Origin: Botryllus schlosseri
Taxonomy: Eukaryota
DNA length: 64,000 bases
Assembly (NCBI GenBank): GCA_051294905.1
Contig: CM119371.1
Location: forward strand, 28,398,001 to 28,462,000
Reading direction: 5' to 3'
Made by a program: the position numbers and the translations under genes. The first letter of the stretch is position 1; every line of letters starts with the position of its first letter. The notes below the pieces were generated by a model. That model made no database searches and had not been told where the DNA came from. It saw only the letters and a program-made list of their open reading frames with translations. Positions 6,935 through 62,844 of the stretch are shown here, in pieces.

Positions 6935-7438
6935 TACTAGAATATGCCTAAAACTGACGTGCTGAAGTTTGGAGGCTATTTCCACTTTGACGCCAACAGT
7001 TATATATCAACATTGCTTAGGTTACAAAACGTAGATGCCTTCATGTGGAAATTGATATTCAGGTAGATCCGCATTACTGTGGCGAGGGAAACTACATAAC
7101 ATTCATGCAATGTAGATTCAGCGCGATAGTAACATATTGTTTCGAAAATAGCAGCTATTCTCATCAACTTTTTCAGACTTCTTACTTGAGTAGTTCTCAT
7201 ACCGCTAACTCCTACTTCTACTACAGGCAATTTTGGCTTGCTATAAATACCGTTACTTCTACTTCTGATTAGAAATTGAAGCTGTTAAAGTTCTACTACA
7301 TGATGAAATCTTTTCAAAATTTTCGCTCGCAGCAATATACCAAATTAGTCGCGATTTTATGTGTAACGATATTTGATAAAAGGATGGTATATTGAATTTC
7401 ATGAACACCACAGCTAAAGTTTTGTCTCCAAGTCCGAA

Positions 7439-8995
7439 ATGACCCATTCCCGACATCGTAACGGTTGCGGTGATCATATTTGCGAGGTATGCGGAAAAGG
7501 CTTCATCATCAAGTCCTGTCTGACAAGACACATGAAAATTCACGCCGTGTCAAAGGATTTTCAGTGCGAAATATGCGGTAAAAGCTTTTCACGAAGTGAT
7601 TACTTAATCCGACATCATTTGTCCCATGTAGCAAAGAAAGATCATAAGTGCGACATATGCGGGCGATCATTCAATTTTAAATCACAATTGACAGATCACG
7701 TGAAAATTCACACCGGGATAAAAGCGTTTGAGTGCGGAATATGCGGTAAAGGCTTCACAAGTAAGGATTATTCGGAAAAACATTATTTGACTCATACTGG
7801 ACGGAAAAATTACGATGAGTGTCAGATATGCGGCAAAGGTTTCGTGCTGAAATCTCATCTGAGACTTCATTATGCGATTCATACTGAGACGAACGATTAC
7901 GAGTGTGATATATGCGGAAAGGGTTTCCGACAACATCGTCACTTGAGAAGTCATTATTTAATTCATGCTGGAACGGAAAAGTACAATTGTCGGGTATGCA
8001 AAAAAGGTTTCAAAACAAGATCCATACTGAAAAGTCATTATTTGATTCACGCCGGGATAAAGGCGTTTGAGTGCGGAATATGCGGGAAAGGCTTCATAAG
8101 GAAGGGTGAGTTCAAAACACATTATTTGAGTCATACTGGAATGAAAAATGACCATGAGTGTCAGATATGCGGCAAAGCTTTCGGGAAGAAATCTCATCTG
8201 AAACGTCATTATTCGATTCATACTGAGGCGAACGATTACGAGTGTGATATATGCGGAAAGGGTTTCCGACGACATTGTCACCTGAGAAGTCATTATTCGA
8301 TTCATACTGAGGCGAACGATTACGAGTGTGATATATGCGGAAAGGGTTTCCGACGACATTGTCAGCTGAGAAGTCATTATTCAATTCATACGAAAGCGAA
8401 AAAGTACAACTGCCAGGTATGCGAAAAAGGTTTCAAAACAAGATCCCGACTCAAACGTCATTATTTGATTCACGCCAGAGATAAGCTACATAAGTGCGAA
8501 ATCTGCGGGAAAGCATTTCGTCGGAATTCAACCCTTAATGGACACGTGCAGGTGATACACTGGAAAATTAATGACTATGAGTGCGATATATGCGGGAAAG
8601 CTTTTATGCAAGAGACTCAACTAAGGTATCATTATGCCGCCCACATGGACATAATGAAATACCAGTGCGAGGTATGTGGGAAACGATTCATCCTCAAATC
8701 TATTATGGAAAGACACATGAACATGCACGTCGGATTGAAAGAGTTTGAGTGCGGAGTATGTGCGAAAGTCTTTCGACGAAAGTCTACCCTTACAACTCAC
8801 TATTCTGTCCACATGGAAAAGCATTACCCGTGTGCAGTATGTGGGAAAATATTCAATGTCAAATCCTACTTGATAAGCCACAGCCAGATTCACTCGGGAG
8901 TTAAAGAGCATGAGTGCGATATCTGTGGCATGGCATTCGCTGCAAATTTTTCTCTTGAGCGTCACGTCCAAATCCACGGAGGCAACAGAAAGTAA
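7439..8995 (+). CDS. Poly-C2H2 zinc-finger protein (ZF1), 518 aa, 18 fingers
   Basis: Uninterrupted ORF of tandem CxxC-x12-HxxxH units with atypical linkers (HTEANDYEC, HVGLKEFEC). ATG context GAAATG is shared with paralogs at 31655 and 61558. Upstream coding exons cannot be excluded. Confidence 0.9.
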   Translation: MTHSRHRNGCGDHICEVCGKGFIIKSCLTRHMKIHAVSKDFQCEICGKSFSRSDYLIRHHLSHVAKKDHKCDICGRSFNFKSQLTDHVKIHTGIKAFECGICGKGFTSKDYSEKHYLTHTGRKNYDECQICGKGFVLKSHLRLHYAIHTETNDYECDICGKGFRQHRHLRSHYLIHAGTEKYNCRVCKKGFKTRSILKSHYLIHAGIKAFECGICGKGFIRKGEFKTHYLSHTGMKNDHECQICGKAFGKKSHLKRHYSIHTEANDYECDICGKGFRRHCHLRSHYSIHTEANDYECDICGKGFRRHCQLRSHYSIHTKAKKYNCQVCEKGFKTRSRLKRHYLIHARDKLHKCEICGKAFRRNSTLNGHVQVIHWKINDYECDICGKAFMQETQLRYHYAAHMDIMKYQCEVCGKRFILKSIMERHMNMHVGLKEFECGVCAKVFRRKSTLTTHYSVHMEKHYPCAVCGKIFNVKSYLISHSQIHSGVKEHECDICGMAFAANFSLERHVQIHGGNRK

Positions 8996-15270: not shown

Positions 15271-15348
15271 GCGGAAGTGACCACAGGCTAAGAGCAACAC
15301 TACGAGCAGGGTGTGTTTGTCTTTGTGGTATTCTTGGTGTTTGTCGAC

Positions 15349-18300
15349 AGTAGTTAGTATGATCGGTCGTGAGGTGGGTGGGGCTCTTATGGGCCCGCTG
15401 GTGACTCGCCGCGAAACTCGTGTTGGTGATTCGCCCTTTTCGACCCCCCCTATCGCTGGTGAGTCGCCATTTGGTCTTATGGTTGCGGCCGTGATTCGCC
15501 CTTTCAGGTATAGGCTGCGTCGGTGACTCGCCGCGAAAACTCGTGTTGGTGACTCGCCTTTTTTACTATAGGCGGTGGCGGTGATTCGCCTGTCATGTAT
15601 TCTTACGCGGTCTCTGGTGACTCGCCATGTGTTCTTATGGGTGCGGTCATGAATCGCCCTTTCAGGTATAGGCTGCGTCGGTGATTCGCCGTGGAAACTC
15701 GTGGTCGTGACTCGCCTTTTTTACTATGGGTGGTGGTGGTGATTCGCCTGTCATGTATTCTTACGGGATCTGTGGTGATTCGCCATGTGTTCTTATGGGT
15801 GCGGTCGTGAATCGCCCTTTCGGGTATAGGCATCTCTCGCCCGGTGTTGAATATGTATCAAGTAAATAGTCATGTGATTGATCCTTAGTTAATGTGTATA
15901 TTCCAAATTATGGCGAGTACGACAATGATATATCGTTATTCTTATGGACGCGGCGATGATTCGTACTTTCGGGTATAGACTGCGGGCGGAATGTCGTACT
16001 TTCAACAAAAAAGGCGTGAAAATAGTTTGCAAAATCTATGAATTACTCTCATGGTAATGTTTGAGTAATTAGATTACCCCAGAGCCGGCGCAGACGGTGA
16101 TTCGAATACCAACAATAACCACGCTCACAAACTAACACTTCAAATAGGTGTGAAATATATAACAAACCCCGCAATCACTGACAAGATAATGTCTCGGACA
16201 TAACCATCTTTCGCGACTTGGTGTTACAGGCATATCGATCACTCACGCGGTGAAATTTTAGTAAGCAGTTTACCACAGAGCCCGCGTAGACGGCGATACC
16301 AACAATAGCCGCGTTCACAAACTAACACTTCAAAAAGGTGCGAAATAGGTTGCAAATCCCACGATCACTCACGAGATAACACCTAAGACAGAGCCAGCCC
16401 TCACCAACTTGTTGTTACATACATTCCAATCGCCACAATGTAATATTTTGATAATCGGTATGTCACAGGAACCGGATTTCACTGGTAAAATTTAATAAGT
16501 AACGGATAACAGAGCCGTCACAGACGATGATTCGAATACCGACAAATTCTCACTTATTTCTGATCCCACCCTAATCCTTTGCGAAGTTGACGCTTAGTCG
16601 AAAAGGTGTGAAATAATTGTAAAACCCTACGTCGCTGACGGGATAATGCATCAGGCATAGCGATCTAGTTATAGCATGGGTCGGAATCCATTCGCGGGAT
16701 GTACTAGGTAAATTGAGATAATCCAAAACCGAATATTTTGACTTTGGCGTAGTGTGAATTGAAATAGGATTGACAGACATGGCTATCAACTTTCCCACAG
16801 TCCCATATTGATATTATACGCACATTGATTCGAAACAAGTAATGGAACATTGCAACTCTATTCGCGATCCGACTTTTCGTTTGTCAAAGCGACATTTTTA
16901 ACATCTTACCATACTCAAAAGAATTATTTACAACATTAACAAGTGTTCAAAATCTAGTTTTCACTTACTTGATTATACCACTGCAACTCACAAATTTGAA
17001 TTAATTCATCCTGGTTGTATTCGTATGATCGGTCTTTTTTATTCAATTGTAAAGGTCGTTACTATTCTGAAGACAAAGTAAGCTATTTACTAATCGACAC
17101 ATAAATGACTTGACATAAACATATTATATTTTGAGTATACGAGATTTGAATGTCTGAACAATAACTGAGAAATAATTTATCACAATAAAATACGTATATT
17201 ACAGCGTAAAAGATGTTTGAATGTCAGCAACTCTGTACGGTCATAGTTACTACCACTAATTTACCCGACCAACTCGTCATGATCATTCCTGAAATCAACA
17301 CAAATATGACCACTGACTTGAGTTAACCACAAAACAGCATCAAGTTTTAAATCCACTTGTAGCTTACGGATTATTTGAATGCTGGTTATGTTTTGTTGTA
17401 ATTGAGTTCACGGAAATAGTATTACGTCTCGACATCTGACCATCTTACCATATTCAAAGAATCAACCACGAAAACATTGTCAAGTAAATCCGTTAACCGA
17501 CCAACTCAACAGTATCAATATGAAAAACAGCCAAACATACACGAATCCATACAAGCACTAAAACCTAAAATCCATAACAAGCCTGGTTGTATTCATATCC
17601 CTACATGTCTTTTTTATTCAACTTGAAAAGTCGTTACTATTCTGTAAGACAAAGAAATTACTATGCGGTATATTTTGTAAGATAAAAGTAATTACTTCTC
17701 GGTGCCCGCGACTTGAGATTAACATAATATGTTTGAGTATGCGAGATTTGAAAGTATGCCCAACATGTTGAGAATTCATTTCTTACAATCGAACGCAGGT
17801 GTTATATTGAAAATTATCATGATGTAAACATAAGGATTGACACATTGATTTGACATATGTAATAGTTGATCATGACTTGACTATTAAATTATTTGCGTTA
17901 ATTAGACCCGGCGTTGTGGTAAAGATTATTGTGACAGCAACAAACTTTTCAGTACCATTGTTATTAACATATTGAGTTGTAAACTATGTGTGTCTAAAAT
18001 GTTCTCGATTGGAAAATTATTCAGCCTTGGTACAAACCACGCAGAGTATTGTGGATATCAGGAAATATTTTACAAATGTCTGCATTAAACAAGACTAAAG
18101 ATGAAACAACAATTTCCTTTGTTGAACAATAACCGGAGCAATACTTTATTGTCGGTGAGAATTGAAACACTTTCGCGCATTACCTGGTGTCAAGATATCA
18201 CACTAGGTGAATTGACATACCACCATTTGATTAATGCTTAATCCGTTCGCATCATTTCACACTCACTTTGATCATTACAAAAGTAAATTGGAATATGTTT

Positions 18301-20569
18301 GCTAGGCACCACCTATTCAACTATACTTGAGTAATACAGAAACCTCTCAGCATTAATAAAATCGAAATGTGCGCTACACTGAAATCTACAAAAATGTGTT
18401 TGTATTGCTGTTCGTAGTAGCGATATCCATTTGAACCTCCATCATCTAACCAAACTACTGAGAGTCGTTGTCAATTTACATGACGTTCACTGATTACATA
18501 CTAGAACTATTTGTGCAGCGCACACGATCAGAGAAATTGGACATTTTTCCATTGCCATTCGTCAAAGTAAATGTCGTCACAATAATCAGTCACTAAAAGA
18601 CCATATACTTGTATGTGATTGAATCGCCGACAATTAACTCGGTAAATCAAACCCCTGAGAAATTTTCACTCAGTCATTGGATAGGAAACAGCGTCGCTTA
18701 ATCGGTGTGAGTCGTTTTTTCTAAATACTAATCATATCTGTCCAGCCAAGAACAATTTTCACTCACTTGGGTAACGAAACCAGTGTCCAATATCAATACA
18801 AGATATTTTCGTCACACAAAAATAATCAACTTCACTCGATATTCCCGTACTACGAAACTGTACAAAGGTTACATGCTTTTGTATGACATGGAATCAATAC
18901 CGATCGAAGTAACCGTATTGGAGATAACTTTTAAACAAACACACTCTACGTGGTTAACATTCTCGTCGATTCTATTGTGATTAATGTATACTTCATGTGA
19001 TCTGGATTCATTTCGATATGGCTAAACATTCAACCTCGACGGATACGAATTGTCACACACTCAAGTAATATCATATCAAATAGTTATTTACAAGACACAG
19101 AAATTTGTTTTGGTCGTTTCGACTTTATTACTGGAGATACTCATCACTTCGCTTAATACAATCTAGATTTAAACTCCATCGAACCTTTGGTGTCTATCGT
19201 TTTGCTGGATACGAATTATGTTAGTCTAAGAGTACACAATTTTCACTATCTTGGGTTATGAACTCAGTGTGTTAGCGATCATTCAATATTTTGTAGTATC
19301 AACTAGCTACTTCGTAGGATACGAATGATCATCCTCACAACTCTTACAAAAGTACGAAGGATATTTACATCACACAAAGTAATCGACTTTACTCGATATC
19401 CTCACACTACGAAACTGAATGGTTATGGTTTGACTCTACAAACTGTTCCGATGTCACAAGAACTTTTTCATACGAATGGTTACGTATCTAAATATTCAAA
19501 TAATCCAACACACGACTATAGCACTTACAGAAATATCATAGTTCTTGTAACAAAGTTGTATAAGTATAATGTTTATCGTAAGTCCTACATAGCCATGATA
19601 TCCGTCCGAGTTTGACTTTTAGAAAACATTATACCGACATCGCGACATCTTTCAAAATTAAAACCACGGTGACTGCTTCAGAGACCTACCAATGAAATTG
19701 CAGTATTACAGTTACTTCCACAAAAGAGTATGTATTCGACTTACTTACCACAAATCTAACGCACAAAACAATTTACTTTACTAACGAGAAGCACCGAGCC
19801 TCACATCAAAACAACTAGAAAGTGGAACTATATATTAAAAAACGTCGCTAACCTTTGTGCGCCAGCTGTAAATCACACAAGCAACATGTTTCAAGATTCT
19901 GGTTATTGAAAAACGTTAAAGTGTTTCTCCTGCACCAAGTCGTTATGTTGACGAAAGCGTATATTGTAATACCATGATCGATTTGCATTCGTTGGTCACA
20001 AACTGTCACTACTCTAAATAATTATTTTTCACTCAAACACAAAAGCATACTTGTCGCCAATCGTTTTCATCAAGCACGAGTTCAAGAAACCTGCTACGAC
20101 ATGAATTGTTATTTTGATGTTGTGTAAATAGGTAATAATTTATTTTAGTAACACTACATCAACATCATCGAGTTGTGCGAATAGATTTACATGTGGTTTT
20201 AATCGAAGTACACAGCACGGTCTAATGTAGATTCATCTCTATTGTACAGCAACTCGGTAATCGAAATGCATTAACATTTAAACAACGATCTTGGTTCGTC
20301 ACGCGAAAAATATCTTTACTGTCGCAACACTCTGATACTCTGCACAAGATGTGTAAATCCTTTTCACACTCATAATAATACACTAACGGGATACCGATGT
20401 CAAGCAACAACGTTTAACAACATCACTGACACTGAACATACGATACCTACCCAAGTAAAAATATCATTTTCACCAGGAGGTCAGTCGTTACTTGTGTACA
20501 ATTACCATTTTCCCTTGGGAGTTTAGCGTTACCCGAGTAACAAAACCATTTTCACTTGGAAATATATGT
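15349..20569 (+). repeat. Left inverted arm (5221 bp)
   Basis: Reverse complement of 22350-27568. Mirrored short ORFs confirm the register (e.g. 19325+23592 = 18783+24134 = 42917, shifting to 42919 after a 2-bp TA indel near 19830). Confidence 0.97.
15400..15831 (+). repeat. Subterminal GC-rich array of GTGA(C/T/G/A)TCGCC motifs in ~158-bp higher-order units (mirrored at 27086-27517)
   Basis: About 14 motif copies spaced ~25-37 bp apart; unit 15491-15649 is repeated at ~15650-15806. Confidence 0.85.
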
Positions 20570-22068
20570 GATTGTGATCAGTCTTTCAGTCACGATCAAT
20601 GGATGTCGCTACTCCCACATAACGACTCCAGATAAATATCATGCAAATGTCGGACTGATATTGTGATCCAATAAGGTATGTTTCTGTGGAATGAAGACTG
20701 CAATCGTACACCACAATAGAACACTACCTCGTGATTTCACACGCAATCATAAAACACACTTTCGTAAGGGTCTAGCTCGTCCGGTGACATTTCGAAACGG
20801 TCATCGCTACAAGAGATCGGGTTGGTCTCGTCATATCGGTAGCATTTTGACACTGTCATCACCACAAGGCTATTGAGGTCGATTCTGTTGGTCATGTCGA
20901 AGAACATGTCAATCCGTTTTAGAATGTACCGTTTTTCAACTCCCCACACTATAGTGTTACGACACAGACAAGAAGCGTCGGTGGAAATGATAAAACACGG
21001 AAGGCATACTTTGGTGTTATTTGATATGGATTTTACACCAGACGAACCTCACATTCGAGCGATGTATTGGAATGGCGATTGTATTATTGATGTCCAGGGA
21101 AAAGAAATGTATCGATTTATCGGTTTCGTACATATCCAACAAAAACCAGGGTATATGATTGTGCATGGTTCGCATATTTGACTGTGATCACAATATTGGT
21201 ATGTACTGTACAGTTCACTTTCACTATCGTGCGAATACCCATGTTACGGTTTCTATGTTTGTGTGTCTGTATGTCATGCTTCAGATTGACTCAGAGTCAT
21301 TGCAATGTGGCTTATTGGTATACCGTTGTTATCGAGTGACATTCGATCTACATCAAAATTACCGGCTATGATAATGTCTGTGGATCGATGTTTGTATACC
21401 AACACATTGCATGCAATGTCACACACCTCCATTTACGCGTATACTGGTGTGGGCAAACAAGCGCGACGTATGTCTGGATGGTATTTTGTCGTGGAAACAC
21501 AGGGTGTAACATGTTTACTTTGAATATTGTTCATTGGTTTATCGATTCACAGTTGATATCCGGATCCGGTTACGTACTTTATCAGGGTTTCCGATTTCAA
21601 ACTGAATGTCGAGACATACATTGACCAATAAAGACACAATATAGTAAACATGTGGGAGGAAAACTCGACCTGGAGTTGGGTGACATAAATCCAACCGTTT
21701 TCCGAGCACCGTTATCCACATACCAATCATCGTCAAGGAGGTGTTTTATTCAGACATTTTGACTCTGGAAAATCCAAAGCACGAACCCGGACATCACGGA
21801 CATATCAGAAACCCCTTTATTCGCCAATTCCGAAAACATACATGTCGATGTACAACAGCACATTGTTATTGTATGTGAGTAACCAATGATTTTGATGAGA
21901 TGCATCAGAGCAAGTGAATATTTGATTACACAAATGTATCGGAGTCGTTGTTGGTGTATATTTTGTCACTGTCTGCTGTAACAATATACAAAAAATATCA
22001 AATTGACCGGTGTAGTTGTCAGTTTTCAAAACGAAAATGGTATTGGTACTCAGGTAAATGATAGTTTT

Positions 22069-22389
22069 CCAAACGAAAAGGGTTTGTTGCCTGGGGAGAA
22101 AAGGGTTTGTTGCTCAGTGAAAATGGTTTGTTGCTCGGGGAAAAAATATATTCCCAAGTGAAAAAGGTTTGTTACCCAGAGAAAAAATATATTTCCAAGT
22201 GAAAAAGGTTTGTTACCAAGAGAAAAAATATATTTCCAAGTGAAAAAGGTTTGTTATCCAGGACAAAAATATATTTCCAAGTGAAAAGGGGTTTGTTACC
22301 CAGGGAAAAAATATATTTCCAAGTGAAAAACGTTTGTTGTTGAGGGAAAACATATATTTCCAAGTGAAAATGGTTTTGTTACTCGGGTA
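22069..22389 (+). repeat. ~41-bp tandem repeat (AAAAAATATATTTCCAAGTGAAAAAGGTTTGTTACCCAGAG), about six copies plus shorter degenerate units
   Basis: Units start near 22141, 22182, 22223, 22265, 22306 and 22347. Confidence 0.9.
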
Positions 22390-25300
22390 ACGCTAAACTC
22401 CCAAGGGAAAATGGTAATTGTACACAAGTAACGACTGACCTCCTGGTGAAAATGATATTTTTACTTGGGTAGGTATCGTATGTTCAGTGTCAGTGATGTT
22501 GTTAAACGTTGTTGCTTGACATCGGTATCCCGTTAGTGTATTATTATGAGTGTGAAAAGGATTTACACATCTTGTGCAGAGTATCAGATTGTTGCGACAG
22601 TAAAGATATTTTTCGCGTGACGAACCAAGATCGTTGTTTAAATGTTAATGCATTTCGATTACCGAGTTGCTGTACAATAGAGATGAATCTACATTAGACC
22701 GTGCTGTGTACTTCGATTAAAACCACATGTAAATCTATTCGCACAACTCGATGATGTTGATGTAGTGTTACTAAAATAAATTATTACCTATTTACACAAC
22801 ATCAAAATAACAATTCATGCCGTAGCAGGTTTCTTGAACTCGTGCTTGATGAAAACGATTGGCGACAAGTATGCTTTTGTGTTTGAGTGAAAAATAATTA
22901 TTTAGAGTAGTGACAGTTTGTGACCAACGAATGCAAATCGATCATGGTATTACAATATACGCTTTCGTCAACATAACGACTTGGTGCAGGAGAAACACTT
23001 TAACGTTTTTCAATAACCAGAATCTTGAAACATGTTGCTTGTGTGATTTACAGCTGGCGCACAAAGGTTAGCGACGTTTTTTAATATAGTTCCACTTTCT
23101 AGTTGTTTTGATGTGAGGCTCGGTGCTTCTCGTTAGTAAAGTAAATTGTTTTGTGCGTTAGATTTGTGGTAAGTAAGTCGAATACATACTCTTTTGTGGA
23201 AGTAACTGTAATACTGCAATTTCATTGGTAGGTCTCTGAAGCAGTCACCGTGGTTTTAATTTTGAAAGATGTCGCGATGTCGGTATAATGTTTTCTAAAA
23301 GTCAAACTCGGACGGATATCATGGCTATGTAGGACTTACGATAAACATTATACTTATACAACTTTGTTACAAGAACTATGATATTTCTGTAAGTGCTATA
23401 GTCGTGTGTTGGATTATTTGAATATTTAGATACGTAACCATTCGTATGAAAAAGTTCTTGTGACATCGGAACAGTTTGTAGAGTCAAACCATAACCATTC
23501 AGTTTCGTAGTGTGAGGATATCGAGTAAAGTCGATTACTTTGTGTGATGTAAATATCCTTCGTACTTTTGTAAGAGTTGTGAGGATGATCATTCGTATCC
23601 TACGAAGTAGCTAGTTGATACTACAAAATATTGAATGATCGCTAACACACTGAGTTCATAACCCAAGATAGTGAAAATTGTGTACTCTTAGACTAACATA
23701 ATTCGTATCCAGCAAAACGATAGACACCAAAGGTTCGATGGAGTTTAAATCTAGATTGTATTAAGCGAAGTGATGAGTATCTCCAGTAATAAAGTCGAAA
23801 CGACCAAAACAAATTTCTGTGTCTTGTAAATAACTATTTGATATGATATTACTTGAGTGTGTGACAATTCGTATCCGTCGAGGTTGAATGTTTAGCCATA
23901 TCGAAATGAATCCAGATCACATGAAGTATACATTAATCACAATAGAATCGACGAGAATGTTAACCACGTAGAGTGTGTTTGTTTAAAAGTTATCTCCAAT
24001 ACGGTTACTTCGATCGGTATTGATTCCATGTCATACAAAAGCATGTAACCTTTGTACAGTTTCGTAGTACGGGAATATCGAGTGAAGTTGATTATTTTTG
24101 TGTGACGAAAATATCTTGTATTGATATTGGACACTGGTTTCGTTACCCAAGTGAGTGAAAATTGTTCTTGGCTGGACAGATATGATTAGTATTTAGAAAA
24201 AACGACTCACACCGATTAAGCGACGCTGTTTCCTATCCAATGACTGAGTGAAAATTTCTCAGGGGTTTGATTTACCGAGTTAATTGTCGGCGATTCAATC
24301 ACATACAAGTATATGGTCTTTTAGTGACTGATTATTGTGACGACATTTACTTTGACGAATGGCAATGGAAAAATGTCCAATTTCTCTGATCGTGTGCGCT
24401 GCACAAATAGTTCTAGTATGTAATCAGTGAACGTCATGTAAATTGACAACGACTCTCAGTAGTTTGGTTAGATGATGGAGGTTCAAATCGATATCGCTAC
24501 TACGAACAGCAATACAAACACATTTTTGTAGATTTCAGTGTAGCGCACATTTCGATTTTATTAATGCTGAGAGGTTTCTGTATTACTCAAGTATAGTTGA
24601 ATAGGTGGTGCCTAGCAAACATATTCCAATTTACTTTTGTAATGATCAAAGTGAGTGTGAAATGATGCGAACGGATTAAGCATTAATCAAATGGTGGTAT
24701 GTCAATTCACCTAGTGTGATATCTTGACACCAGGTAATGCGCGAAAGTGTTTCAATTCTCACCGACAATAAAGTATTGCTCCGGTTATTGTTCAACAAAG
24801 GAAATTGTTGTTTCATCTTTAGTCTTGTTTAATGCAGACATTTGTAAAATATTTCCTGATATCCACAATACTCTGCGTGGTTTGTACCAAGGCTGAATAA
24901 TTTTCCAATCGAGAACATTTTAGACACACATAGTTTACAACTCAATATGTTAATAACAATGGTACTGAAAAGTTTGTTGCTGTCACAATAATCTTTACCA
25001 CAACGCCGGGTCTAATTAACGCAAATAATTTAATAGTCAAGTCATGATCAACTATTACATATGTCAAATCAATGTGTCAATCCTTATGTTTACATCATGA
25101 TAATTTTCAATATAACACCTGCGTTCGATTGTAAGAAATGAATTCTCAACATGTTGGGCATACTTTCAAATCTCGCATACTCAAACATATTATGTTAATC
25201 TCAAGTCGCGGGCACCGAGAAGTAATTACTTTTATCTTACAAAATATACCGCATAGTAATTTCTTTGTCTTACAGAATAGTAACGACTTTTCAAGTTGAA

Positions 25301-27568
25301 TAAAAAAGACATGTAGGGATATGAATACAACCAGGCTTGTTATGGATTTTAGGTTTTAGTGCTTGTATGGATTCGTGTATGTTTGGCTGTTTTTCATATT
25401 GATACTGTTGAGTTGGTCGGTTAACGGATTTACTTGACAATGTTTTCGTGGTTGATTCTTTGAATATGGTAAGATGGTCAGATGTCGAGACGTAATACTA
25501 TTTCCGTGAACTCAATTACAACAAAACATAACCAGCATTCAAATAATCCGTAAGCTACAAGTGGATTTAAAACTTGATGCTGTTTTGTGGTTAACTCAAG
25601 TCAGTGGTCATATTTGTGTTGATTTCAGGAATGATCATGACGAGTTGGTCGGGTAAATTAGTGGTAGTAACTATGACCGTACAGAGTTGCTGACATTCAA
25701 ACATCTTTTACGCTGTAATATACGTATTTTATTGTGATAAATTATTTCTCAGTTATTGTTCAGACATTCAAATCTCGTATACTCAAAATATAATATGTTT
25801 ATGTCAAGTCATTTATGTGTCGATTAGTAAATAGCTTACTTTGTCTTCAGAATAGTAACGACCTTTACAATTGAATAAAAAAGACCGATCATACGAATAC
25901 AACCAGGATGAATTAATTCAAATTTGTGAGTTGCAGTGGTATAATCAAGTAAGTGAAAACTAGATTTTGAACACTTGTTAATGTTGTAAATAATTCTTTT
26001 GAGTATGGTAAGATGTTAAAAATGTCGCTTTGACAAACGAAAAGTCGGATCGCGAATAGAGTTGCAATGTTCCATTACTTGTTTCGAATCAATGTGCGTA
26101 TAATATCAATATGGGACTGTGGGAAAGTTGATAGCCATGTTTGTCAATCCTATTTCAATTCACACTACGCCAAAGTCAAAATATTCGGTTTTGGATTATC
26201 TCAATTTACCTAGTACATCCCGCGAATGGATTCCGACCCATGCTATAACTAGATCGCTATGTCTGATGCATTATCCCGTCAGCGACGTAGGGTTTTACAA
26301 TTATTTCACACCTTTTCGACTAAGCGTCAACTTCGCAAAGGATTAGGGTGGGATCAGAAATAAGTGAGAATTTGTCGGTATTCGAATCATCGTCTGTGAC
26401 GGCTCTGTTATCCGTTACTTATTAAATTTTACCAGTGAAATCCGGTTCCTGTGACATACCGATTATCAAAATATTACATTGTGGCGATTGGAATGTATGT
26501 AACAACAAGTTGGTGAGGGCTGGCTCTGTCTTAGGTGTTATCTCGTGAGTGATCGTGGGATTTGCAACCTATTTCGCACCTTTTTGAAGTGTTAGTTTGT
26601 GAACGCGGCTATTGTTGGTATCGCCGTCTACGCGGGCTCTGTGGTAAACTGCTTACTAAAATTTCACCGCGTGAGTGATCGATATGCCTGTAACACCAAG
26701 TCGCGAAAGATGGTTATGTCCGAGACATTATCTTGTCAGTGATTGCGGGGTTTGTTATATATTTCACACCTATTTGAAGTGTTAGTTTGTGAGCGTGGTT
26801 ATTGTTGGTATTCGAATCACCGTCTGCGCCGGCTCTGGGGTAATCTAATTACTCAAACATTACCATGAGAGTAATTCCTAGATTTTGCAAACTATTTTCA
26901 CGCCTTTTTTGTTGAAAGTACGACATTCCGCCCGCAGTCTATACCCGAAAGTACGAATCATCGCCGCGTCCATAAGAATAACGATATATCATTGTCATAC
27001 TCGCCATAATTTGGAATATACACATTAACTAAGGATCAATCACATGACTATTTACTTGATACATATTCAACACCGGGCGAGAGATGCCTATACCCGAAAG
27101 GGCGATTCACGACCGCACCCATAAGAACACATGGCGAATCACCACAGATCCCGTAAGAATACATGACAGGCGAATCACCACCACCACCCATAGTAAAAAA
27201 GGCGAGTCACGACCACGAGTTTCCACGGCGAATCACCGACGCAGCCTATACCTGAAAGGGCGATTCATGACCGCACCCATAAGAACACATGGCGAGTCAC
27301 CAGAGACCGCGTAAGAATACATGACAGGCGAATCACCGCCACCGCCTATAGTAAAAAAGGCGAGTCACCAACACGAGTTTTCGCGGCGAGTCACCGACGC
27401 AGCCTATACCTGAAAGGGCGAATCACGGCCGCAACCATAAGACCAAATGGCGACTCACCAGCGATAGGGGGGGTCGAAAAGGGCGAATCACCAACACGAG
27501 TTTCGCGGCGAGTCACCAGCGGGCCCATAAGAGCCCCACCCACCTCACGACCGATCATACTAACTACT
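22350..27568 (-). repeat. Right inverted arm (5219 bp)
   Basis: Mirror of 15349-20569. By eye about seven substitutions and one 2-bp indel (not an exhaustive count). Confidence 0.97.
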
Positions 27569-27771
27569 GTCGACTACTATGGGCATTTACACCAGGCCGA
27601 TATTCTCCATGTTTCCTGTAACTGCCGACCCACTCCAGGCTTTTTGTAAGACACCGCGTACGCTCACGTACATTTAGGTATTGGAATTCTGAAGTGGACC
27701 TCGGTTGGACTCGAACCCGCACCCGTTGGTGTTGTAGCCACGGATTATACCACCGCGCTATCTCGCCACGT
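27569..27771 (-). mobile_element. tRNA-derived SINE, 5' part; its 3' tail lies at 15313-15348, split off by the Polinton-like insertion
   Basis: Minus strand carries A box TAGCGCGGTGG and B box GGTTCGAGTCC. TACGAGCAGGGT flanks the whole at 15301-15312 and 27772-27783. The body matches the uninterrupted copy near 55300-55490. Confidence 0.85.
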
Positions 27772-30272: not shown

Positions 30273-31655
30273 TTACTTTCCGTCGCTTTCGTGGATTCGT
30301 AAGTGACGCACGAGAGAACTCTTTATACCGAATGTCCTTCCGCATATATCGCACTCATGCTCTTTTACTCCCGAGTGAATCTTGCTGTGGATTCTCAAGT
30401 AGGATTTGACATTGAATATTTTCCCGCATATTTCACACGGGTATTTTGCTTCCGTGTGGACGGAATAGTGATGTCTGAGGTTAGTCCTTTGTCGAAAGAC
30501 TTTACCGCATGTATCGCAATCATACCTTTTCGCATTTAAATGGGCCGACTCCGTGTGTGTCTGAGTGTTACACTTCGAACTAAATGCTTTACCACAAATC
30601 TCACATTGGAACTCTTTAAATCCGACATGGTACTTCATGTGCGCTCTTAAATGAGATTCGCTGGCGAATCTTTTCGCACATACATCGCACACAAACTCTT
30701 TCAATCCGACGTGAATGTTCATGTGTCTTCGCATATTGGATTTGAGATCGAATCGTTTCCCACATACCTCGCATTGATATTTTATGTCCATATGTGCGGC
30801 ATTATGATATCTTAGTTGATTCTCTTGCAAAAAAGCTTTCCCGCATACATCGCACTCATATTCTTTCATATTCAAGTGTATCACCTTCACGTGTCTCTTA
30901 AGGTTCGACTTCCAACGAAATGCTTCCCCGCAAATCTCGCACTTATGTCTCTTATCTCCGGCGTGAATCAAATAATGACTTTCCAGTTGAGATCCGGTTT
31001 TGAATCCTTTTCCGCATATTCGGCACTCGTAATCTTTTGCTGCAGTATGAACGGCAAAATGACTTTTCAGGTCACATTTCTTTCGGAAATCTTTGCCGCA
31101 TACCTGACACACGTAATCTTTAGTCTTAGTGTGAATCAAGTAATGATTGTCCAGTTTACATTTCTGTCCGAAACTTTTGCCGCATATATGGCACTCGTAC
31201 TCTTTTGCCTTGGTATGAATCAAGTGATGTCTTTTCAGATTACATTTCTCTTCGAATTCTTTGTCGCATATACGACACTCGTACTCTTTCGCTCCAGTAT
31301 GACTCAAATAATGTGTTTTCAAATGGTCCTTTCTAGTGAAACCTTTCCCGCAAATTTCGCACTCACACTCTTTCACCCCAGCGTGAATTTTCATGTGGTT
31401 TCTCAAGTTTGATTTGAAATTGAATGATCTCCCGCATATGTCGCAATTATGACCTTCCTTTTTCGCGTGGCACGCGAGATGATGTATTAGGTAAGGCCTT
31501 TGCACAAAGTTTTTTCCGCATATGTCGCACTCAAACTCCTTCGAAGTGGCGTGAATTTTCATGTGCCTTGTCAGATAAGATTTGATGATGAATCCCATTC
31601 CACATACCTCGCAAATATTATCATTGCAGGCGATACGATGCTGGGATCGGGCCAT
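30273..31655 (-). CDS. Poly-C2H2 zinc-finger protein (ZF2), 460 aa, 16 fingers
   Basis: Tandem C2H2 array. The N-terminus MARSQHRIACNDNICEVCGMGFIIKSYLTRHMKIH aligns with the ZF1 N-terminus, and the C-terminal fingers (KYPC.ICGKIFNVKSYL) are shared. Confidence 0.9.
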   Translation of the reverse strand: MARSQHRIACNDNICEVCGMGFIIKSYLTRHMKIHATSKEFECDICGKNFVQRPYLIHHLACHAKKEGHNCDICGRSFNFKSNLRNHMKIHAGVKECECEICGKGFTRKDHLKTHYLSHTGAKEYECRICDKEFEEKCNLKRHHLIHTKAKEYECHICGKSFGQKCKLDNHYLIHTKTKDYVCQVCGKDFRKKCDLKSHFAVHTAAKDYECRICGKGFKTGSQLESHYLIHAGDKRHKCEICGEAFRWKSNLKRHVKVIHLNMKEYECDVCGKAFLQENQLRYHNAAHMDIKYQCEVCGKRFDLKSNMRRHMNIHVGLKEFVCDVCAKRFASESHLRAHMKYHVGFKEFQCEICGKAFSSKCNTQTHTESAHLNAKRYDCDTCGKVFRQRTNLRHHYSVHTEAKYPCEICGKIFNVKSYLRIHSKIHSGVKEHECDICGRTFGIKSSLVRHLRIHESDGK

Positions 31656-33041
31656 TTCTAGCTTTGCGAGTACACTTTGCGACTTTAGCTGCGATGAGAA
31701 TACAATTCCATCTATCGGTCTTTCAGCAAATATCGTGAAAAAATTAGTGTATTGCTGCGTTCTAAAATTTTCAAAAGATTACATCATGAAAAGATATGCT
31801 TTTTTCGAATCACAAAACTTCAGTATTCGTTATAACAGAGCTAGAGGTAGGCAGAGCATTTTCTGCTATTACTCAACTGGAAGTACAACTAGAATACTGT
31901 CCAATTCTGATCAATTACAAGCGGAAGTACCGCGATTTTCAGAGAGTGTCAACACTACATGTGGTAAAAGTAGAAACCATTGCAGGACTACACTGTTATG
32001 AAGCAATTATACGGTCGGCGGTCACCATGATCAGAACACCCATTCCGTACCAATGATCTATATCTACTTGCTATAACTGTCGAACCGATGACAATGTCGA
32101 GGGTACAGCCACTCCATATCGTATACGTCGACTCTATTGGGTGCGAATCGTCCGTAGGCTCATACTATACATGTTTTTCGAAAGAATTCACACATTTATG
32201 GCATAATCATACAACGTTTGGAACAAAACACAACTAATTTTTTAAGGCATTTGTTTGAAACGCAGTTTGTTTTAAATGCAGCCTTAACTACAATTAAAAC
32301 TACTCACTTTTCAAAACTCGCAAATATATAAGGAATTACCAACGACCTTTAAAAATCTCTAGCTAACTAATTAAAGCACGACTGACTACATCATGATTCT
32401 TAACCACTTTTTTCCCAGGAGCCGCAGGGATTCCATGATCAAGTCTCAGGGGATCCCTGGAGGTCGCGGCACGCGCTAAACTCAGACATATGATTTGCGA
32501 AGACAAGCCCGTTTTGACCAACATTGACTGCAAGCAATTATGCTCGATCAGCATTTGAATTGTGACTGTTTTATTGGTACGTCGCGTGCAGTGGCGTAAG
32601 AAGGGAAGGTCGTGGTTCGAAATCGGAACTGGAGTCTGAACGATATGATGGCGCTTACTTTCCTAATGCGAAGCCGCGAGACTATATGAACTATAGTCTC
32701 TAAAAGGAAGAGCAGGTGCCATACTGATTAGTAGGGCGATTTTTTACCTAAAAACAGAAGATTTTGACCTGAAAAAAATTGACATTTTCTTACCCCAAAA
32801 AACTTAATTTTGCCCAAATTTTTACCTCGCGTATGCAAATTAGATGTTTTAGCACATGATTTTAAAATTGTACCACTTTTCCTCATTTGTGGTTGGAACT
32901 GTCTGTCCTTGCGAAGTAGTTTGGCCTGAAATAATGTTATTGACTTGATATCTGACAAATATTTACATGAAAAAACTTGATTTTAACGAAATCTGACCCT
33001 ATGAAGAATTCCAGTAGTTACATCAGGTATTATGGTATGAA

Positions 33042-45750: not shown

Positions 45751-47519
45751 TGATTATATTGGTGTTCAGGCTGTATTGCTACCTTGTCAATTAATGTTGG
45801 CAAAGCCTTGTTAGACTAACGAAAATGCAGAAATACACATTCGTCAACACCTATATTTGTGAAAATATGTTTTTAGTACTCGATCGTTCATATCAAATAG
45901 TAGTCGCGCGGACCTATTTCATGAAATACAGCTGCAGATTTTGCTACTGTCTGCCAAATTTCGACATAAATAGTGCGGTGTTATGTTGAATAAACGTCAT
46001 TTTGTTGCTGTTTATCACTAGCCTACAGTTGGCATTTGCGCAAGACAGATGATGCACGATAATTGAGCTAAATTTGAACTAAAACTTCGGGTGTCCGTGG
46101 GGTCCGTTACGGTCCACAAGGGCTCCGTGAAGTCAAAAAGGTTGATAGCAACTAGTCTAATTGGTCGCGTCGATTCGCCTGACTACTAATTACTAGCTAC
46201 AAATTACTACGGCGTTTGAGCATTTTGTTCGAGGTGGCCGCCACCCCAAATCCGATGAGTTGGCGCCTGTGCTCAGGGGTATGTAGAACTATTGTTCTAC
46301 TATGTCACGGGTCACCAACACGGCCCGCATAAGTTAGCGCATATGGCTATGAGACGTCGCAGCACGGTAGTAATGCATATCGACTGTCTGTAAATCGCAT
46401 CACTTTAACCAGTGGTTCTCCACTGCTAGTCGCCAGACCTGTACGAGTCTGCGTCAACTTTTTAGTCGGGTCCAATAACTTAAGATTAATTTGTTCACAA
46501 TCGCAAAATGTAAGAGGTGGAAGGTTTGTTCAATAATTACAGAACTAAAACACCGGCTTCTTTTTATACGTCGTCACAATGTTGCAATTGATGCACCAAT
46601 CTGTTTTAAATTAGCTATAAACAAGTCTATCAAGACCAGTAATATGAGGCTTTTTCATTGAAGCTGACCAGTTTCCAGCTACTTAATCATTGTGGTATAT
46701 ATTTTCATTATTTAGCAATGACTATATCAAAACTCTCAGACCCTTCGTAAGATGTTAACGCGAAAAAAGCATTACTCTGCATTCAGGCAGGCCTGGAACA
46801 CGATGTTTGGTTATGGCGAAGTGTCAAAATTTGCCCCCGTCAATACTGTTATTAAAAGAATGGCCGAAATTTAGACATTAGCTGTTGCTTCTTCCTCATG
46901 TATTTCGTAACTCACCATGCCATGAAATAATCTTAAAGCCTTATCTGCCAACCAACATACCAATGCGCTTTCAGAATCACCGCCGTAAGCAGACTCCTTG
47001 ATCGTTTAATCTAAGCCAGTCACGAGCTGTGGTTTCGTGATTACTATAGGGCAAGTTTTTGTTGCAGTTAAATCCGTGAAAGTTGCATTTATTTTTGACA
47101 AAAGTTGCAGTAAAAAGTTGCATTTATTTTTTCACAAAAGTTGCACTAAAAGACCACCTTTTGCTCGGTTGACTAAAAATAGGTCAACTTCCCGCCATAG
47201 AATGAGACATTACAAAGGAGCATTTTTGAGATTTTTGAAATTTTGAAAAATCATAATGGCCATCGTATCAGCATATGCATTATGCATCGACAACTTCCAG
47301 CAAATGCAGAATAGAGTGTTCCGGAACATTTTGCATTTTCCTTAAATGTAGCGCTGCAAGAAATGTGTATCGATTACCTCATAACAATGTGTCCGGTTAC
47401 AGATCATTACAATACTGAAATGTATTCGCCTATTCGAGTAAACGCAACCTATCGATATATCATATGTTGGTAGTTGATGTGTGTTGCTTGAGGAAGTGTA
47501 TTACATGTAACCTAAAAGA

Positions 47520-48281
47520 ATGTCTAGAAAGACTTGTTGGATCTGTGGGAAATCCGTCAATTGTCATGGCGAAATTAAAGCTCATCTGCAATCCCACATT
47601 GAAGAGAGAAAAAATGAATGTGATATCTGTGGGAAAGCCTTCACTGCGATGCCTACGATGAAAGCACATCGAACAACTCACACTGTTTTGAAAAACCATG
47701 AATGCGATATCTGTGGAAAAAAGTTTACTAGGATCAGCCATTTGAAAATACATATGAAGACACATACTGCAGTGAAAAACCATGAATGTGACATCTGTGG
47801 CAGAAGGTTTACTCAGATCGGTGACTTGAATACTCATTGGAATACACATACTGGATTGAAAAGCTATGCATGTGAGATCTGTGGCAAAGCGTTTTCCCGG
47901 ATCGACACCTTACGAACACACGCGAATACACATACTGCAGGTAAAAACTATGAATGTGACATGTGTGGGAAGACTTTCGCTAGGAAAGATGGTTTAGCAA
48001 CACACATGCATGTTCACATTGGAGTTAAAGACTATGCTTGCGAGGTTTGTGGAAAAGCGTTTCTCAAGATCGGTTACTTGAAAGCCCATAGAAATGTACA
48101 TACGGGTGTGACAAACTATGAATGTGAGGTGTGTGGAAAGACCTTCGCTTGGAATGGATATTTAGCGAAACACGTTGATATTCACACAGGAGTCAGAAAG
48201 TATGAATGTGAGATTTGCGGGAAATCATTTACATTCCTCAGGTCATTGAAAATACATGGGTATGTGCATGTTGAAGTCTGA
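47520..48281 (+). CDS. Poly-C2H2 zinc-finger protein (ZF3), 253 aa, 9 fingers, more distant subfamily
   Basis: Nine tandem C2H2 fingers with HTAVKNHEC/HTGVRKYEC linkers; N-terminus differs from ZF1/2/4. Confidence 0.85.
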   Translation: MSRKTCWICGKSVNCHGEIKAHLQSHIEERKNECDICGKAFTAMPTMKAHRTTHTVLKNHECDICGKKFTRISHLKIHMKTHTAVKNHECDICGRRFTQIGDLNTHWNTHTGLKSYACEICGKAFSRIDTLRTHANTHTAGKNYECDMCGKTFARKDGLATHMHVHIGVKDYACEVCGKAFLKIGYLKAHRNVHTGVTNYECEVCGKTFAWNGYLAKHVDIHTGVRKYECEICGKSFTFLRSLKIHGYVHVEV

Positions 48282-55274: not shown

Positions 55275-55487
55275 TTGACTTCAGAATTACGACACCTTGA
55301 TGTTGGAGGTTTACCTAGGCTCCTCCTCGCCACATCATCCGCGTAAGCGGTGTCTTACAAAAAGCCTAGAGGTGGGCCGTGCTATAAGTCGGCAGTTACG
55401 GAAAATAATGAACAATATCGACCTGGTGTAAATGACCTTAGTAGTCGACAAACACCATTAATACCACAAACATACAAACAAACAGAT
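55275..55487 (+). mobile_element. SINE body and tail, same family as the split SINE (empty GTCGAC site)
   Basis: GCGGTGTCTTACAAAAAGCCT...CCTGGTGTAAATG...AGTAGTCGACAAACACC...ACAAACAAACA with a single GTCGAC at 55444-55449. Other diverged copies at ~10705-10905(-), ~59970-60140(-) and a head at ~61335-61415(-). Confidence 0.75.
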
Positions 55488-59036: not shown

Positions 59037-61557
59037 AATTAGCCTACTCAGTAGGAGTTGTTCATTTTGACTATAGTAGCCCAATCGCGTGCTCAAGTTT
59101 ATACAATTAAATAGTATATTCATATTGAAATGAACCCGAATATTTTCGGCTGACACTCGTCAGGGGTAATCGTCAGCAACTAGTAGAGAATTGGAAAGAA
59201 CATTGTATATCAACAATCGTATCACAAAATATGACGTCACCAGCATGAAATTTCGAATGAGAGAGCGTTCAATGTACTATTTTTAGGTGATACACGAACT
59301 CCTTTTGTTCACAGAGTTTTGGTTGGTGTATTTTGATAAAAGTTGATTCCAAGGCACACAAATGGAATTGTGAACGGCCTCGACCTACGATTCGAGTTTA
59401 TATAGAATATTCCCCCGCCACTTCCAACAGATTTCAAACAAATTCACCTATGTTTCGTGTTGTTGATGAAGCTGCTTCCGTGTAGAAAATAGTATTTCGA
59501 TAGATTAGCATCACTGTCACAAGAGTAATTGCATAACAACCATGCGATGTAGACTCTGTGTGATGGCATCGAATTGTTTGAAAACAGCAGCAATTTCCGT
59601 GGTCATTAGTCCAGAGGTGGTCAAAGTAGTCACTCTCGCTACTCAAGTAGAAGTATAAGCAACGCCGTAATTTTTTACTGAAGTTTAAGGAGAAGTATTC
59701 TAAGCCTAGTTTTGCCTAGAAAACTGAAAACTGTCTAGCTCTAGCAGATGCACAAATAGCCTAAAATAATAACCACTTTAAGAAGCAGTGCAGGTAAACA
59801 GATTCTACTTGAAGCACATCGAATGTAGAAGCACTTCGTTACTGCCTACCTATGCATTGGTCATTCTGCGCTGATCGTGAAGATGCATATATAATATACC
59901 TTCAGACTACTTACTTACACGTGTCTACTTGACCGCATGTGGCTCTGTTCTATCGAATAGTGATCTTGTCGTTTGTTCTTGTAGTTGTTGTGGTATTCAT
60001 GGTTCTTGTCGACTACTTTAGTGCAATATGCCAACTTCCATCATTTTTATTCAGTATAGCTGCGGACTTGTAGCACGGCAAACTTCAAGATTTTTATAAC
60101 ACACCGCCTACACGGATGGAACGGTGACGAGGAGTCTATATATCAGGGGTCACCTTGCACGCGGCCCGCGACCTGATTTGAAATTTCGGAAGAATGCTTA
60201 GTAAAGCATTTTAAAATTCTGAAATTGGAGATTGGAGATTGGAGATTGTTTCCAAGCAAACAACTAATGTCAATATCGATTCTTTAGTCCAGTGGGGGGC
60301 AACCTTCTGCAGTAGAAGACAAATTATATGCCCCCGTCGATACTTCATTATATTACAGTGGTTCCCAACCTGAGGGCGCGTCACCCTTGGGGGCGTGAAA
60401 GCTCTGAAGGGGACCCAAAAAAGCGGTCAACTGAAAAAAGAATTCGCGCATTGCGCGATTTACCTCCAATTCGTGCGTGTTTCTCCATATATACACCGAA
60501 TTTCATATTTTTCAATTCTCTCATCAACAGTTAGCCTTCCATGCCATGAACAATCTGTTGGGGTTGCTAGCATCCGGGTTGGATTTTGTGATATGACAAT
60601 AAGGGGCGCGGAATTTTACACCATCATTAAGGGGGGCGTGTCTAAAAAAAGGTTGGGAACCACTTAATTAGGATGTGTTGGCTGCTGTCCATATGCGAAT
60701 TGAATTTACGAATTGATATCCTAATTAATGAGAGGTTTGAAGTATTCTTGAAATCTTCTTCGCTCTATGCGCGGTCCAATGCGAGTTGTTTCTCGATTTT
60801 AATATAGTATTATAGTGGCCTTTGTAATCTAAGTCCCAAAGTACAGATGCGCACAGCAGAGGAAAATGAAGTGCCCCATCAAGAATTACCAATTTGTAAT
60901 CGTTTTCTCGTCATCACGAAGGAAATCTATTTCTGGTAGGCGTAAATTTGGGTGAATCCAAAATCTATCCACTATTCCGACAATCCTGATGGGAGGTCAA
61001 GACACAACAGCATGCGACAAAGAGAACTAATGGCAATTGGCCCAATCAAAGATGCAGCACCGCAGCATTAATAACTTCCCTACATTTTCGAAGACATCCC
61101 CTGCATCAACTCTACCGGTGAATCTGATCACATGGGCTGAGAAAGGACGAATATTTGATAGTAATAAGTGAAACTATACTTATATTATTGACGAAATACA
61201 ATCATGGATAACAAACAATTTTCGCGCTTGCGCAACTACGAAACGCGCATACGAATTTCGAAATGTGGTATGCGACCCATTTTAAGTTGGCGACCCCTGG
61301 TCTAAATAAATCTCCAACTCTTGGTTAGGAATTCTGGAGTCCAGCTCGGTCGGACTCGAAACCGCAATCCATTGGTGTTAAAAATGTGGGTTATATCACA
61401 ATGAAATCTCGCTACCTATAGAGATCTTATGTGACTTCAAAAGAGACTTTTCATGTAATCTTATGTTCATTTTAGAACGCTGCATTAGACAGGATTACAT
61501 TATATTAAATTATAGAAGCAGTGCAGTTAATAACAAATTTTTTTGGCCAAGTTGGAA

Positions 61558-62844
61558 ATGACCCATTCTCAAAGTCATAATGACCGCAATGAAAATAAAT
61601 GCAAGGTTTGCGGAGAAGGATTCATCAACCGGTCTAGCTTGGGACTACATATGAAATTTCACGCTGCACTCAACGACTTTGAGTGCTACATATGCGGAAA
61701 ATCATTCGTCACCAAATATTGCATGAAAATGCACATGAAAATTCACTCCGTTTCGAAAGAGTTTGAGTGCGACATATGTGGAAAAAGCTTTTTGCAAAAG
61801 TCATGCCTGAAAACTCATTTTACGCGCCACACGGGAAAGAAGGACTATAAGTGCGACATATGCGGGATGACATTCAGCAGCAACTCCGAAATGAGAGGAC
61901 ACGAAAAAATTCATTCCGCAGTAAAACAGTTTGAGTGCGAAATCTGCGGGAATGGCTTCGTAAGCAAGTCTACTTTTAGGGCACATTATTTGCGTCACAA
62001 AGGAGCGGCGAAAGATCACGAGTGTCAAATATGCGGGAAAGGTTTCGAAATAAAATCGAACCTGGAAAAACATTATTTGATTCACACCGGAGAAAAAGAA
62101 CACAAGTGCGACATCTGTGGGAAAGCTTTTCGTAGGAAGTCGCACATTAGGGAGCACATGAAGAGGATACACTCAAATACGAGAGAATATGAGTGCGATA
62201 TATGCGGGGAAGCTTTTGTGCACGAGTCTCACCTGAAATATCACTATTCCGTCCACATGGGACCAGGATACCTTTGTGAAGTATGTGGGAAACCGTTTGT
62301 TATCGAATCCAAGATGAGAAGACACATGAATAGTATGCACTTCAGATTGAAAGAGTTTGAGTGCGACATATGTGCGAGACCATTCGCCGCGAAATCCGTC
62401 ATGAGAAGACACATGAAACTTCACGCCGGATTGAAGGAGTGTGAATGTGAGATTTGTGGTAAAGCATTCCATTCGAAGTGGCACGCACAGAGACACACAG
62501 CGTCGGCTCACTTAGAAGCGAAAGGATATGAGTGCGACACATGCGGCAGTGTCTTTCGACATAAGTCTAACCTCGGAGCTCACTATTTCATCCACATGGA
62601 AAAGAAGTACCCGTGTGCAATCTGTGGGAAACTATTCAATGTCAAATCCTCATTGAAAAAACACACCAAGATTCACTTGGGAGTAAAAGACTATGAGTGC
62701 GAGATTTGCGGAAAGACATTTGGTTCAAGGAGTTGTATTGTCCGTCACTTCCGAGTTCACGGAATCGACAGGAAGAAAGGATGCGATGAGTCCGTAAAAC
62801 ATTTCAGAGGCGGGTCTCTTAAAAAAAATCACTTATCTAGATGA
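61558..62844 (+). CDS. Poly-C2H2 zinc-finger protein (ZF4), ~428 aa, 14 fingers plus degenerate tail
   Basis: ATG at 61558 (GAAATGACCCATTC, matching the ZF1 start context); the ORF track's TTG start at 61543 is not used. Paralogous to ZF1/ZF2. Confidence 0.9.
   Translation: MTHSQSHNDRNENKCKVCGEGFINRSSLGLHMKFHAALNDFECYICGKSFVTKYCMKMHMKIHSVSKEFECDICGKSFLQKSCLKTHFTRHTGKKDYKCDICGMTFSSNSEMRGHEKIHSAVKQFECEICGNGFVSKSTFRAHYLRHKGAAKDHECQICGKGFEIKSNLEKHYLIHTGEKEHKCDICGKAFRRKSHIREHMKRIHSNTREYECDICGEAFVHESHLKYHYSVHMGPGYLCEVCGKPFVIESKMRRHMNSMHFRLKEFECDICARPFAAKSVMRRHMKLHAGLKECECEICGKAFHSKWHAQRHTASAHLEAKGYECDTCGSVFRHKSNLGAHYFIHMEKKYPCAICGKLFNVKSSLKKHTKIHLGVKDYECEICGKTFGSRSCIVRHFRVHGIDRKKGCDESVKHFRGGSLKKNHLSR

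Follow-up and report, generated by a model that had tools for sequence, protein, structure and literature searches.

The window analysed here, 64,000 nucleotides of Botryllus schlosseri DNA (GenBank assembly GCA_051294905.1, contig CM119371.1, positions 28,398,001 to 28,462,000, forward strand), holds at 15349-27568 a 12,220-bp element that is mostly inverted repeat. The best account of it, and in our judgement the probable one, makes it a member of a satellite family: palindromes that share their ends with a capsid-encoding Polinton (the helper), carry a small gene of their own, ORF91, and are likely replicated and integrated by the helper's proteins. With its three loop types the family is an old lineage that perpetuates itself, rather than a defective genome formed once. 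Trans-mobilisation is likely, judging by the shared ends and the target site duplication (TSD).

A palindrome, its siblings and its helper

The focal element starts with AGTAGT, stops with ACTACT and has GTCGAC on each side (TSD copies at 15343-15348 and 27569-27574). Its paired arms, 15349-20569 on the plus strand (5,221 bp, the inner end truncated) and 22350-27568 on the minus strand (5,219 bp), are 99.83% identical, with seven substitutions and one 2-bp indel; 1,780 bp between them are unpaired. GTCGAC is itself palindromic, so the inverted match reaches 6 bp into the flanks, and the element ends were set at AGTAGT by comparison with other copies. At paralogous empty sites (window 55341-55483 and locus L101) the flanks join with one 6-bp overlap and a single GTCGAC; the insertion breaks an older repeat. 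A preliminary description of the window had thus read the termini, the 6-bp TSD and the two ~5.2-kb arms with their handful of differences correctly, and integration as a unit is supported. It had put the upper limit for ORFs at about 100 aa; the longest stop-to-stop frame entirely within the element is 112 aa.

The same description took the 1,780 bp as a spacer. The length is correct; the native loop is smaller. In relatives the loop is ~0.93 kb and the arms take in the counterpart of 21288-22349. Judged against these, the focal copy has lost ~1.3 kb from the inner left arm and the loop (~0.2 kb of the latter), a deletion private to this copy whose junction, at 20569-20570, occurs once in the whole genome (496 Mb in 219 contigs). 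The middle consists of a ~720-bp remnant of the subtype A loop (20570-21287, plus strand) and 1,062 bp of inner right arm (21288-22349, minus strand), unpaired here with its left mate deleted and the family's most conserved part. Without the deletion the copy would measure about 13.5 kb.

A degenerate 20-bp end motif finds 882 forward and 898 reverse matches genome-wide, against 0 and 1 for the control; by this count the family runs to multiple hundreds of copies, about 890 end pairs. Thirty end pairs were fetched on contig C1 irrespective of content, from the first 100 listed end-motif matches; set aside were four known pairs (the focal element, two palindromes and one helper) and five large nested or composite ones. 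Twenty are at least 75% palindrome, four are palindromes with large insertions, four are partial or rearranged and two are coding Polintons. Copies at other target sites, which the preliminary description had proposed to look for, are the rule: 28 of the 30 have their own perfect 6-bp TSD (one is mismatched, one has none). Copies picked by end or loop similarity agree with this sample. Thirty-five uninterrupted copies measure 12,888-14,741 bp (median 13,646, standard deviation 480), with arms of 5.95-6.9 kb, and the palindromic share of the elements is ~93%. The loop types define subtypes A, B and short-loop, the last with a ~335-bp loop that lacks ORF91; among its scored matches, 40 are full-length and 98-100% identical, and all ten sampled copies have TSDs (lengths 12,773-14,593 bp). 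The non-autonomous character claimed for the element is supported as well: core genes are missing, yet it has multiplied.

These individual TSDs make it very unlikely, almost to the point of dismissal, that the palindromes are assembly artefacts produced by fold-back reads or mis-resolved repeats. The arms are known here from the assembly, and two copies contain duplications that may be misassembled; against this, the flanks are not inverted, resolved indels and insertions tell the two arms apart, there are empty paralogous sites, and family sequence appears in short-read contigs from several studies. The duplications, in two-loop copies at G000:C11:19810176-19831040 (L071-L073) and C2:28391982-28413504 (L088-L090), are direct, 7.3-7.6 kb long, 100.0% identical and within one TSD pair; they are either misassembly or true arm-to-arm duplication. 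More same-strand loop pairs, 7-10 kb apart, occur among the loop and ORF91 matches. At the focal left junction, short-read contigs reach just 24 and 17 bases into the element, below the bridging threshold; in another study's contigs the left flank is followed by sequence resembling the beginning of the right flank, possibly in paralogues.

The helper, a coding Polinton with the same termini such as the preliminary description had supposed, is present in this genome. Nine measured elements span 14.1-17.3 kb (median 16.2 kb), end as the palindromes do and have terminal inverted repeats (TIRs) of about 0.55-1.1 kb; one of six helper end pairs showed no TIR in the fetched stretches. With TIRs this short in the helper, the focal element is not a plain internal deletion of a relative with ~5-kb TIRs. 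Helper ORFs match the rve integrase with a chromo domain and the protein-primed polymerase pPolB (PF03175) above the hmmscan cut-off, and an A32-like ATPase weakly; a genome-wide search for PF03175 gave 0 matches, a false negative, since hmmscan detects pPolB in these ORFs. A 423-aa stretch gives a model of pLDDT 93 that matches double-jelly-roll capsid proteins (E 7e-17; iridovirus, PBCV-1, Sputnik and mavirus among the fold matches), and on this model the helper is predicted to encode such a capsid protein. Its 217-aa ORF resembles OB-fold proteins, which is a lead; its 188-aa ORF we read by its motifs as a putative adenain-like protease, for which Pfam gave nothing. Of 113 scored genomic integrase matches, 92 reach an identity of 91% or more, and four helper copies share 95-97% DNA identity. 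A second Polinton family has TIRs of ~290 bp. At least two Polinton families other than the helper's, with the same gene set, are represented by loci L123-L130; the identity of their integrases to that of the helper is about 66% and 53%.

What palindrome and helper share is limited to the ends. The match is confined to the first ~630 bp of the focal element (the left terminal region, 15349-15984, plus strand, which includes 158-bp repeats at 15452-15831), at 96% over the first 323 bp. Past that point arm and loop match no helper DNA or protein; the 11 helper proteins find nothing in the element by tblastn, and the second and third Polinton families do not match it either. The arm is non-coding, and decayed direct duplications make up about 2,270 of the 6,281 bp that a full arm measures (five shuffles gave 0 hits). 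These results bear on the analogy, drawn in the preliminary description and here taken literally, with copy-back or snap-back defective viral genomes. One end is indeed duplicated in inverted form, the ends are 90-96% identical to the helper's, and some relatives carry 0.2-0.7 kb of a helper left-end or right-end gene in both arms. Sequence derived from the helper does not run throughout the focal element, however, and a recent copy-back or internal-deletion genome of the present helper is unsupported because no helper match extends beyond ~630 bp in arm or loop; in addition, ORF91 is found in none of the Polinton families, and its subtypes are only ~58% identical. This origin is largely refuted and retains little probability. 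Among individual copies, an OB-fold-like ORF is carried by L055, L157, L199, L201, L203 and L209, pieces of a protease-like ORF by L039, L041, L061, L082, L084 and L086, and the 217-aa ORF, whole or in part, by four of ten short-loop copies.

An orphan gene in the loop

That the element is gene-less, as first described, was not borne out. ORF91 (20906-21181, plus strand, 91 aa) keeps a full ATG-to-stop frame at 51 of the 56 other loci that tblastn matches, and variation in the loop tracks codon position. Subtypes A and B are about 58% identical in protein. Averaged over pairs that are non-independent, dN/dS comes to 0.34 among A copies (780 pairs), 0.20 among B copies (55) and 0.30 across the two subtypes (440). 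The focal copy and one B copy are separated by 50.8 nonsynonymous changes over 215.5 sites and 33.2 synonymous changes over 57.5 sites. All five other frames contain stops in all 52 sequences, which were picked for an open ORF91 frame; among the 150 best-scored of 1,188 genomic candidates, six have an internal stop. When the 861 ORFs of 42 copies are compared, none but ORF91 and the frame antisense to it keep a fixed length across subtypes. AATAAA lies 3' of the frame at 21627 in the focal copy; among 36 loci examined, 26 have it after the stop codon, 25 of these about 400-560 bp downstream.

On these patterns ORF91 is a predicted orphan gene under purifying selection, with no homologue outside the family. 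It is absent from the helper and from the other two Polinton families; a protein search returned one 85%-identical protein only, with no match among longer proteins; Pfam gave nothing below E 0.07, and PDB and viral contigs gave no match. The best Atlas score, 0.85, is a lead at most. The predicted structure is all-beta at low confidence (pLDDT 39.8), so that a fold search with this unreliable model, which found no match at E<=0.001, is uninformative. One RNA run, shallowly sampled at 6%, placed 106 reads, none in the bin spanning most of ORF91, which speaks neither for nor against expression. The gene is selected, yet not required in cis, because the short-loop subtype has multiplied without it.

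Six-frame scans for a second gene in the inner arm found nothing convincing in unspliced frames. A 44-bp block at 21737-21780 is near-invariant in subtypes A and B; it does not belong to the stretch that the ORF-less subtype has in common with them and is possibly tied to ORF91 expression. A 41-bp tandem array at 22030-22415, present in all subtypes examined and absent from the helper, is a candidate cis-element. The inner arm was also considered as the site of a conserved structure, in RNA or DNA. The z score is -5.4 in the focal copy and low in three subtype-A copies, but low in only one of the seven other copies, with three of 57 pairs covarying; for the family as a whole such a structure was rejected. 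An Rfam search gave no match.

Concerted arms, constant length and how the palindromes may move

Within a copy the arms are a median of 5.5 substitutions apart (n=34), or ~0.1%; between copies they share a median 78% identity in a rough alignment, with none of 595 pairs above 98%. Because a difference of ~0.1% within copies stands against one of ~20%, mosaic in kind, between them, the arms evolve in concert. The focal copy illustrates the mosaic: its middle arm is about 99% identical to a few relatives, and other tracts differ from each of these. Of 374 between-arm substitutions, 189 fall in clusters of four or more, and in two of five one-arm patches tested another copy is clearly a better match than the mate arm (the patch in L035 is 100% identical to L044/45 and 92.6% to its mate). 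Large lineage differences occur in both arms. Recombination thus brings new sequence into one arm, and copying usually carries it over to the mate before the next insertion. The pattern fits the panhandle, or homology-restoring, model of protein-primed genomes, a popular model for which, in the portion of PMC11886824 drawn on here, direct evidence is said to be lacking even in model viruses.

A mechanism can be proposed on this basis. Helper pPolB would prime at the AGTAGT ends and displace one strand; the displaced strand would fold into a hairpin with a ~6.3-kb stem, thereby restoring a terminal origin; as the paired arms are repaired or recombine, changes in one of them, including tracts taken from other copies or the helper, would be copied to its mate; and helper integrase would insert the duplex, making the 6-bp duplication. 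ORF91 most likely works on the helper machinery in the satellite's favour, which is a guess. Palindrome length may be held near the helper's through packaging in helper capsids; this is the weakest step, and we put it at somewhat under an even chance.

One alternative dispenses with polymerase and capsid. The palindrome would be moved by its ends through helper integrase alone, in a foldback-like cut-and-paste, and the arms homogenised by chromosomal gene conversion. It draws on the fact that ends and TSD are all that link palindrome to helper, and one-arm patches and one-arm deletions could arise in place. Many chromosomal copies, however, retain one-arm insertions or deletions uncorrected, while large lineage differences are found in both arms. 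Cut-and-paste normally favours short derivatives; the two shortened copies tested, the focal one and a short copy, have junctions unique in the genome. We regard this alternative as unlikely, with a modest residual chance.

The case for a capsid size filter begins with length. Intact palindromes measure 79-91% of the helper median, and the three subtypes, with ~20% divergent, indel-rich arms, have a median of ~13.65 kb in common. This hints at packaging. Adenovirus genomes that fall short of 75% of wild-type length undergo rearrangement, and vectors of 15 kb are packaged in dimeric form, direct as well as inverted (excerpts of PMC4189039); intact Mavericks are likewise described as constrained in size in part of PMC8097293. 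A further alternative keeps pPolB replication and departs from the preferred mechanism in the size step only: palindrome and length would come from history, or from a replication advantage in which self-annealing shields the displaced strand. It can point to a length-compensation test without a significant outcome (variance ratio 0.80, p=0.13, three anchors only), to a short-loop centre just ~0.4 kb shorter than that of subtype A, and to the helper OB-fold-like ORF in the arms of some lineages, which points to single-strand handling. A shorter palindrome should then replicate faster, and none was found multiplied; the median common to three divergent subtypes also speaks against it. Its chances appear slim.

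Several points weigh against the satellite account and its packaging step. The account reasons from genome sequence to extrachromosomal DNA, particles and transposition, and for panhandles direct evidence is lacking even in model viruses (PMC11886824). Between-arm differences become only slightly more frequent near the loop (decile chi-square p=0.027; inner versus outer half p=0.07), and a patch donor is clear in only the two of five. The compensation test counts here too; common ancestry alone could yield similar lengths; and short TSD-flanked copies of 3.3, 7.3 and 8.5 kb exist, the junction of one of the three having been examined. The ORF91-less subtype has multiplied, and the pairwise dN/dS values are non-independent. 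With these in view the satellite account still seems to us the probable one. Its fullest form, a natural satellite virus of an animal Polinton, with an inverted-dimer genome whose non-coding padding fills the helper capsid, arms homogenised extrachromosomally and an orphan loop protein that hijacks the helper, is tentative, and we would sooner bet against it than for it.

Some observations concern the family's surroundings. Three nested end pairs occupy G000:C1:16768420-16810257, each ~13.1-14.7 kb by subtraction, the innermost alone having been examined; a 20-kb copy on C4 contains a MULE-type transposase fragment (L042:4512-5003). In sequencing runs X12 and X13 about 0.4 of the words sampled belong to a second organism label, and the terminal motif has matches in X12 contigs; the family may reach into a related species. 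The focal element lies in a zinc-finger-rich, repeat-rich region: long, uninterrupted C2H2 zinc-finger frames run at 7418-8995 (plus strand, 17 fingers) and similarly at 30273-31778, 47511-48281 and 61534-62844, the first three with 84-bp periodicity.

Known systems and the meaning of the family

In the portions of PMC8097293 and PMC4028283 used here, autonomous Polintons/Mavericks resemble the palindromes in end motif, 6-bp TSD and near-equal size; vertebrate elements have (AGT)2//(ACT)2 ends, 12.7-24.6 kb and TIRs of 46-1,447 bp (mean 402; PMC8097293). They differ in that palindrome arms reach 6-6.9 kb (5.2 kb in the focal copy) and no integrase, pPolB, ATPase, protease or capsid gene is present. 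Butterfly Polintons that lack polB and carry cargo, and elements whose ~2-kb TIRs bear genes, are also on record (10.1101/2025.02.07.637071), and ~2 kb is about the longest TIR in the excerpts of that report and of PMC6431247, 10.1101/2024.01.15.575659, PMC3014272, PMC13027316, PMC4028283, PMC8097293 and 10.1101/2022.07.12.499685.

Gene-depleted Polintons are alike in helper-type ends, loss of core genes and retained mobility; they are unlike the palindromes, which are ~93% palindromic, with an interior unrelated to the helper, a selected orphan gene of their own and several-fold more copies than the helper. Non-autonomous Polintons were reportedly found in zebrafish by Kapitonov and Jurka in 2006. 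Copy-back genomes share the hairpin form, whereas the palindromes are not built from helper sequence. Foldback and Galileo of Drosophila have long inverted arms with internal repeats, as here, with a 7-10-bp TSD and a cut-and-paste transposase partner in place of a 6-bp TSD and Polinton ends and partner. The phage satellites P4 and PICIs combine helper dependence, likely here also, with a small gene of their own; the effect on the helper is in our case only guessed. Helper-dependent adenovirus vectors, in the part of PMC4189039 considered, offer protein-primed ends, non-coding filler and an inverted dimer, features matched here at 79-91% of helper length. Those vectors are laboratory constructs with packaging shown; the palindromes are natural, integrating and heritable, and may be packaged. 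Vectors that arose through recombination between inverted repeats are the subject of a paper cited in PMC13027316.

No description of giant palindromic non-autonomous Polintons appeared in the literature searched, which left the founding papers and Repbase outside its scope, so that a prior description is possible. Taken together, the element is real and reads as a Polinton satellite, probably dependent on its helper, whose giant arms evolve in concert and which holds an orphan gene; Polinton-type ends and TSD were already known.

The palindromes are several-fold more numerous than the helper, and at ~13.6 kb apiece the ~890 end pairs would account, by our estimate, for something on the order of 2% of the genome; they escape surveys that begin with integrase or polymerase genes. 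ORF91 places a selected orphan inside a seemingly gene-less element. Hundreds of natural, probably helper-dependent copies amount to a population-scale readout on extrachromosomal replication and virions of animal Polintons: the homogenisation of the arms bears on the panhandle model, and the floor on length bears on packaging. Particles of animal Polintons have not been observed to date, according to the section of PMC8097293 cited here. If the satellite-virus reading is true, the length distribution would be genomic evidence for Polintons travelling in particles.

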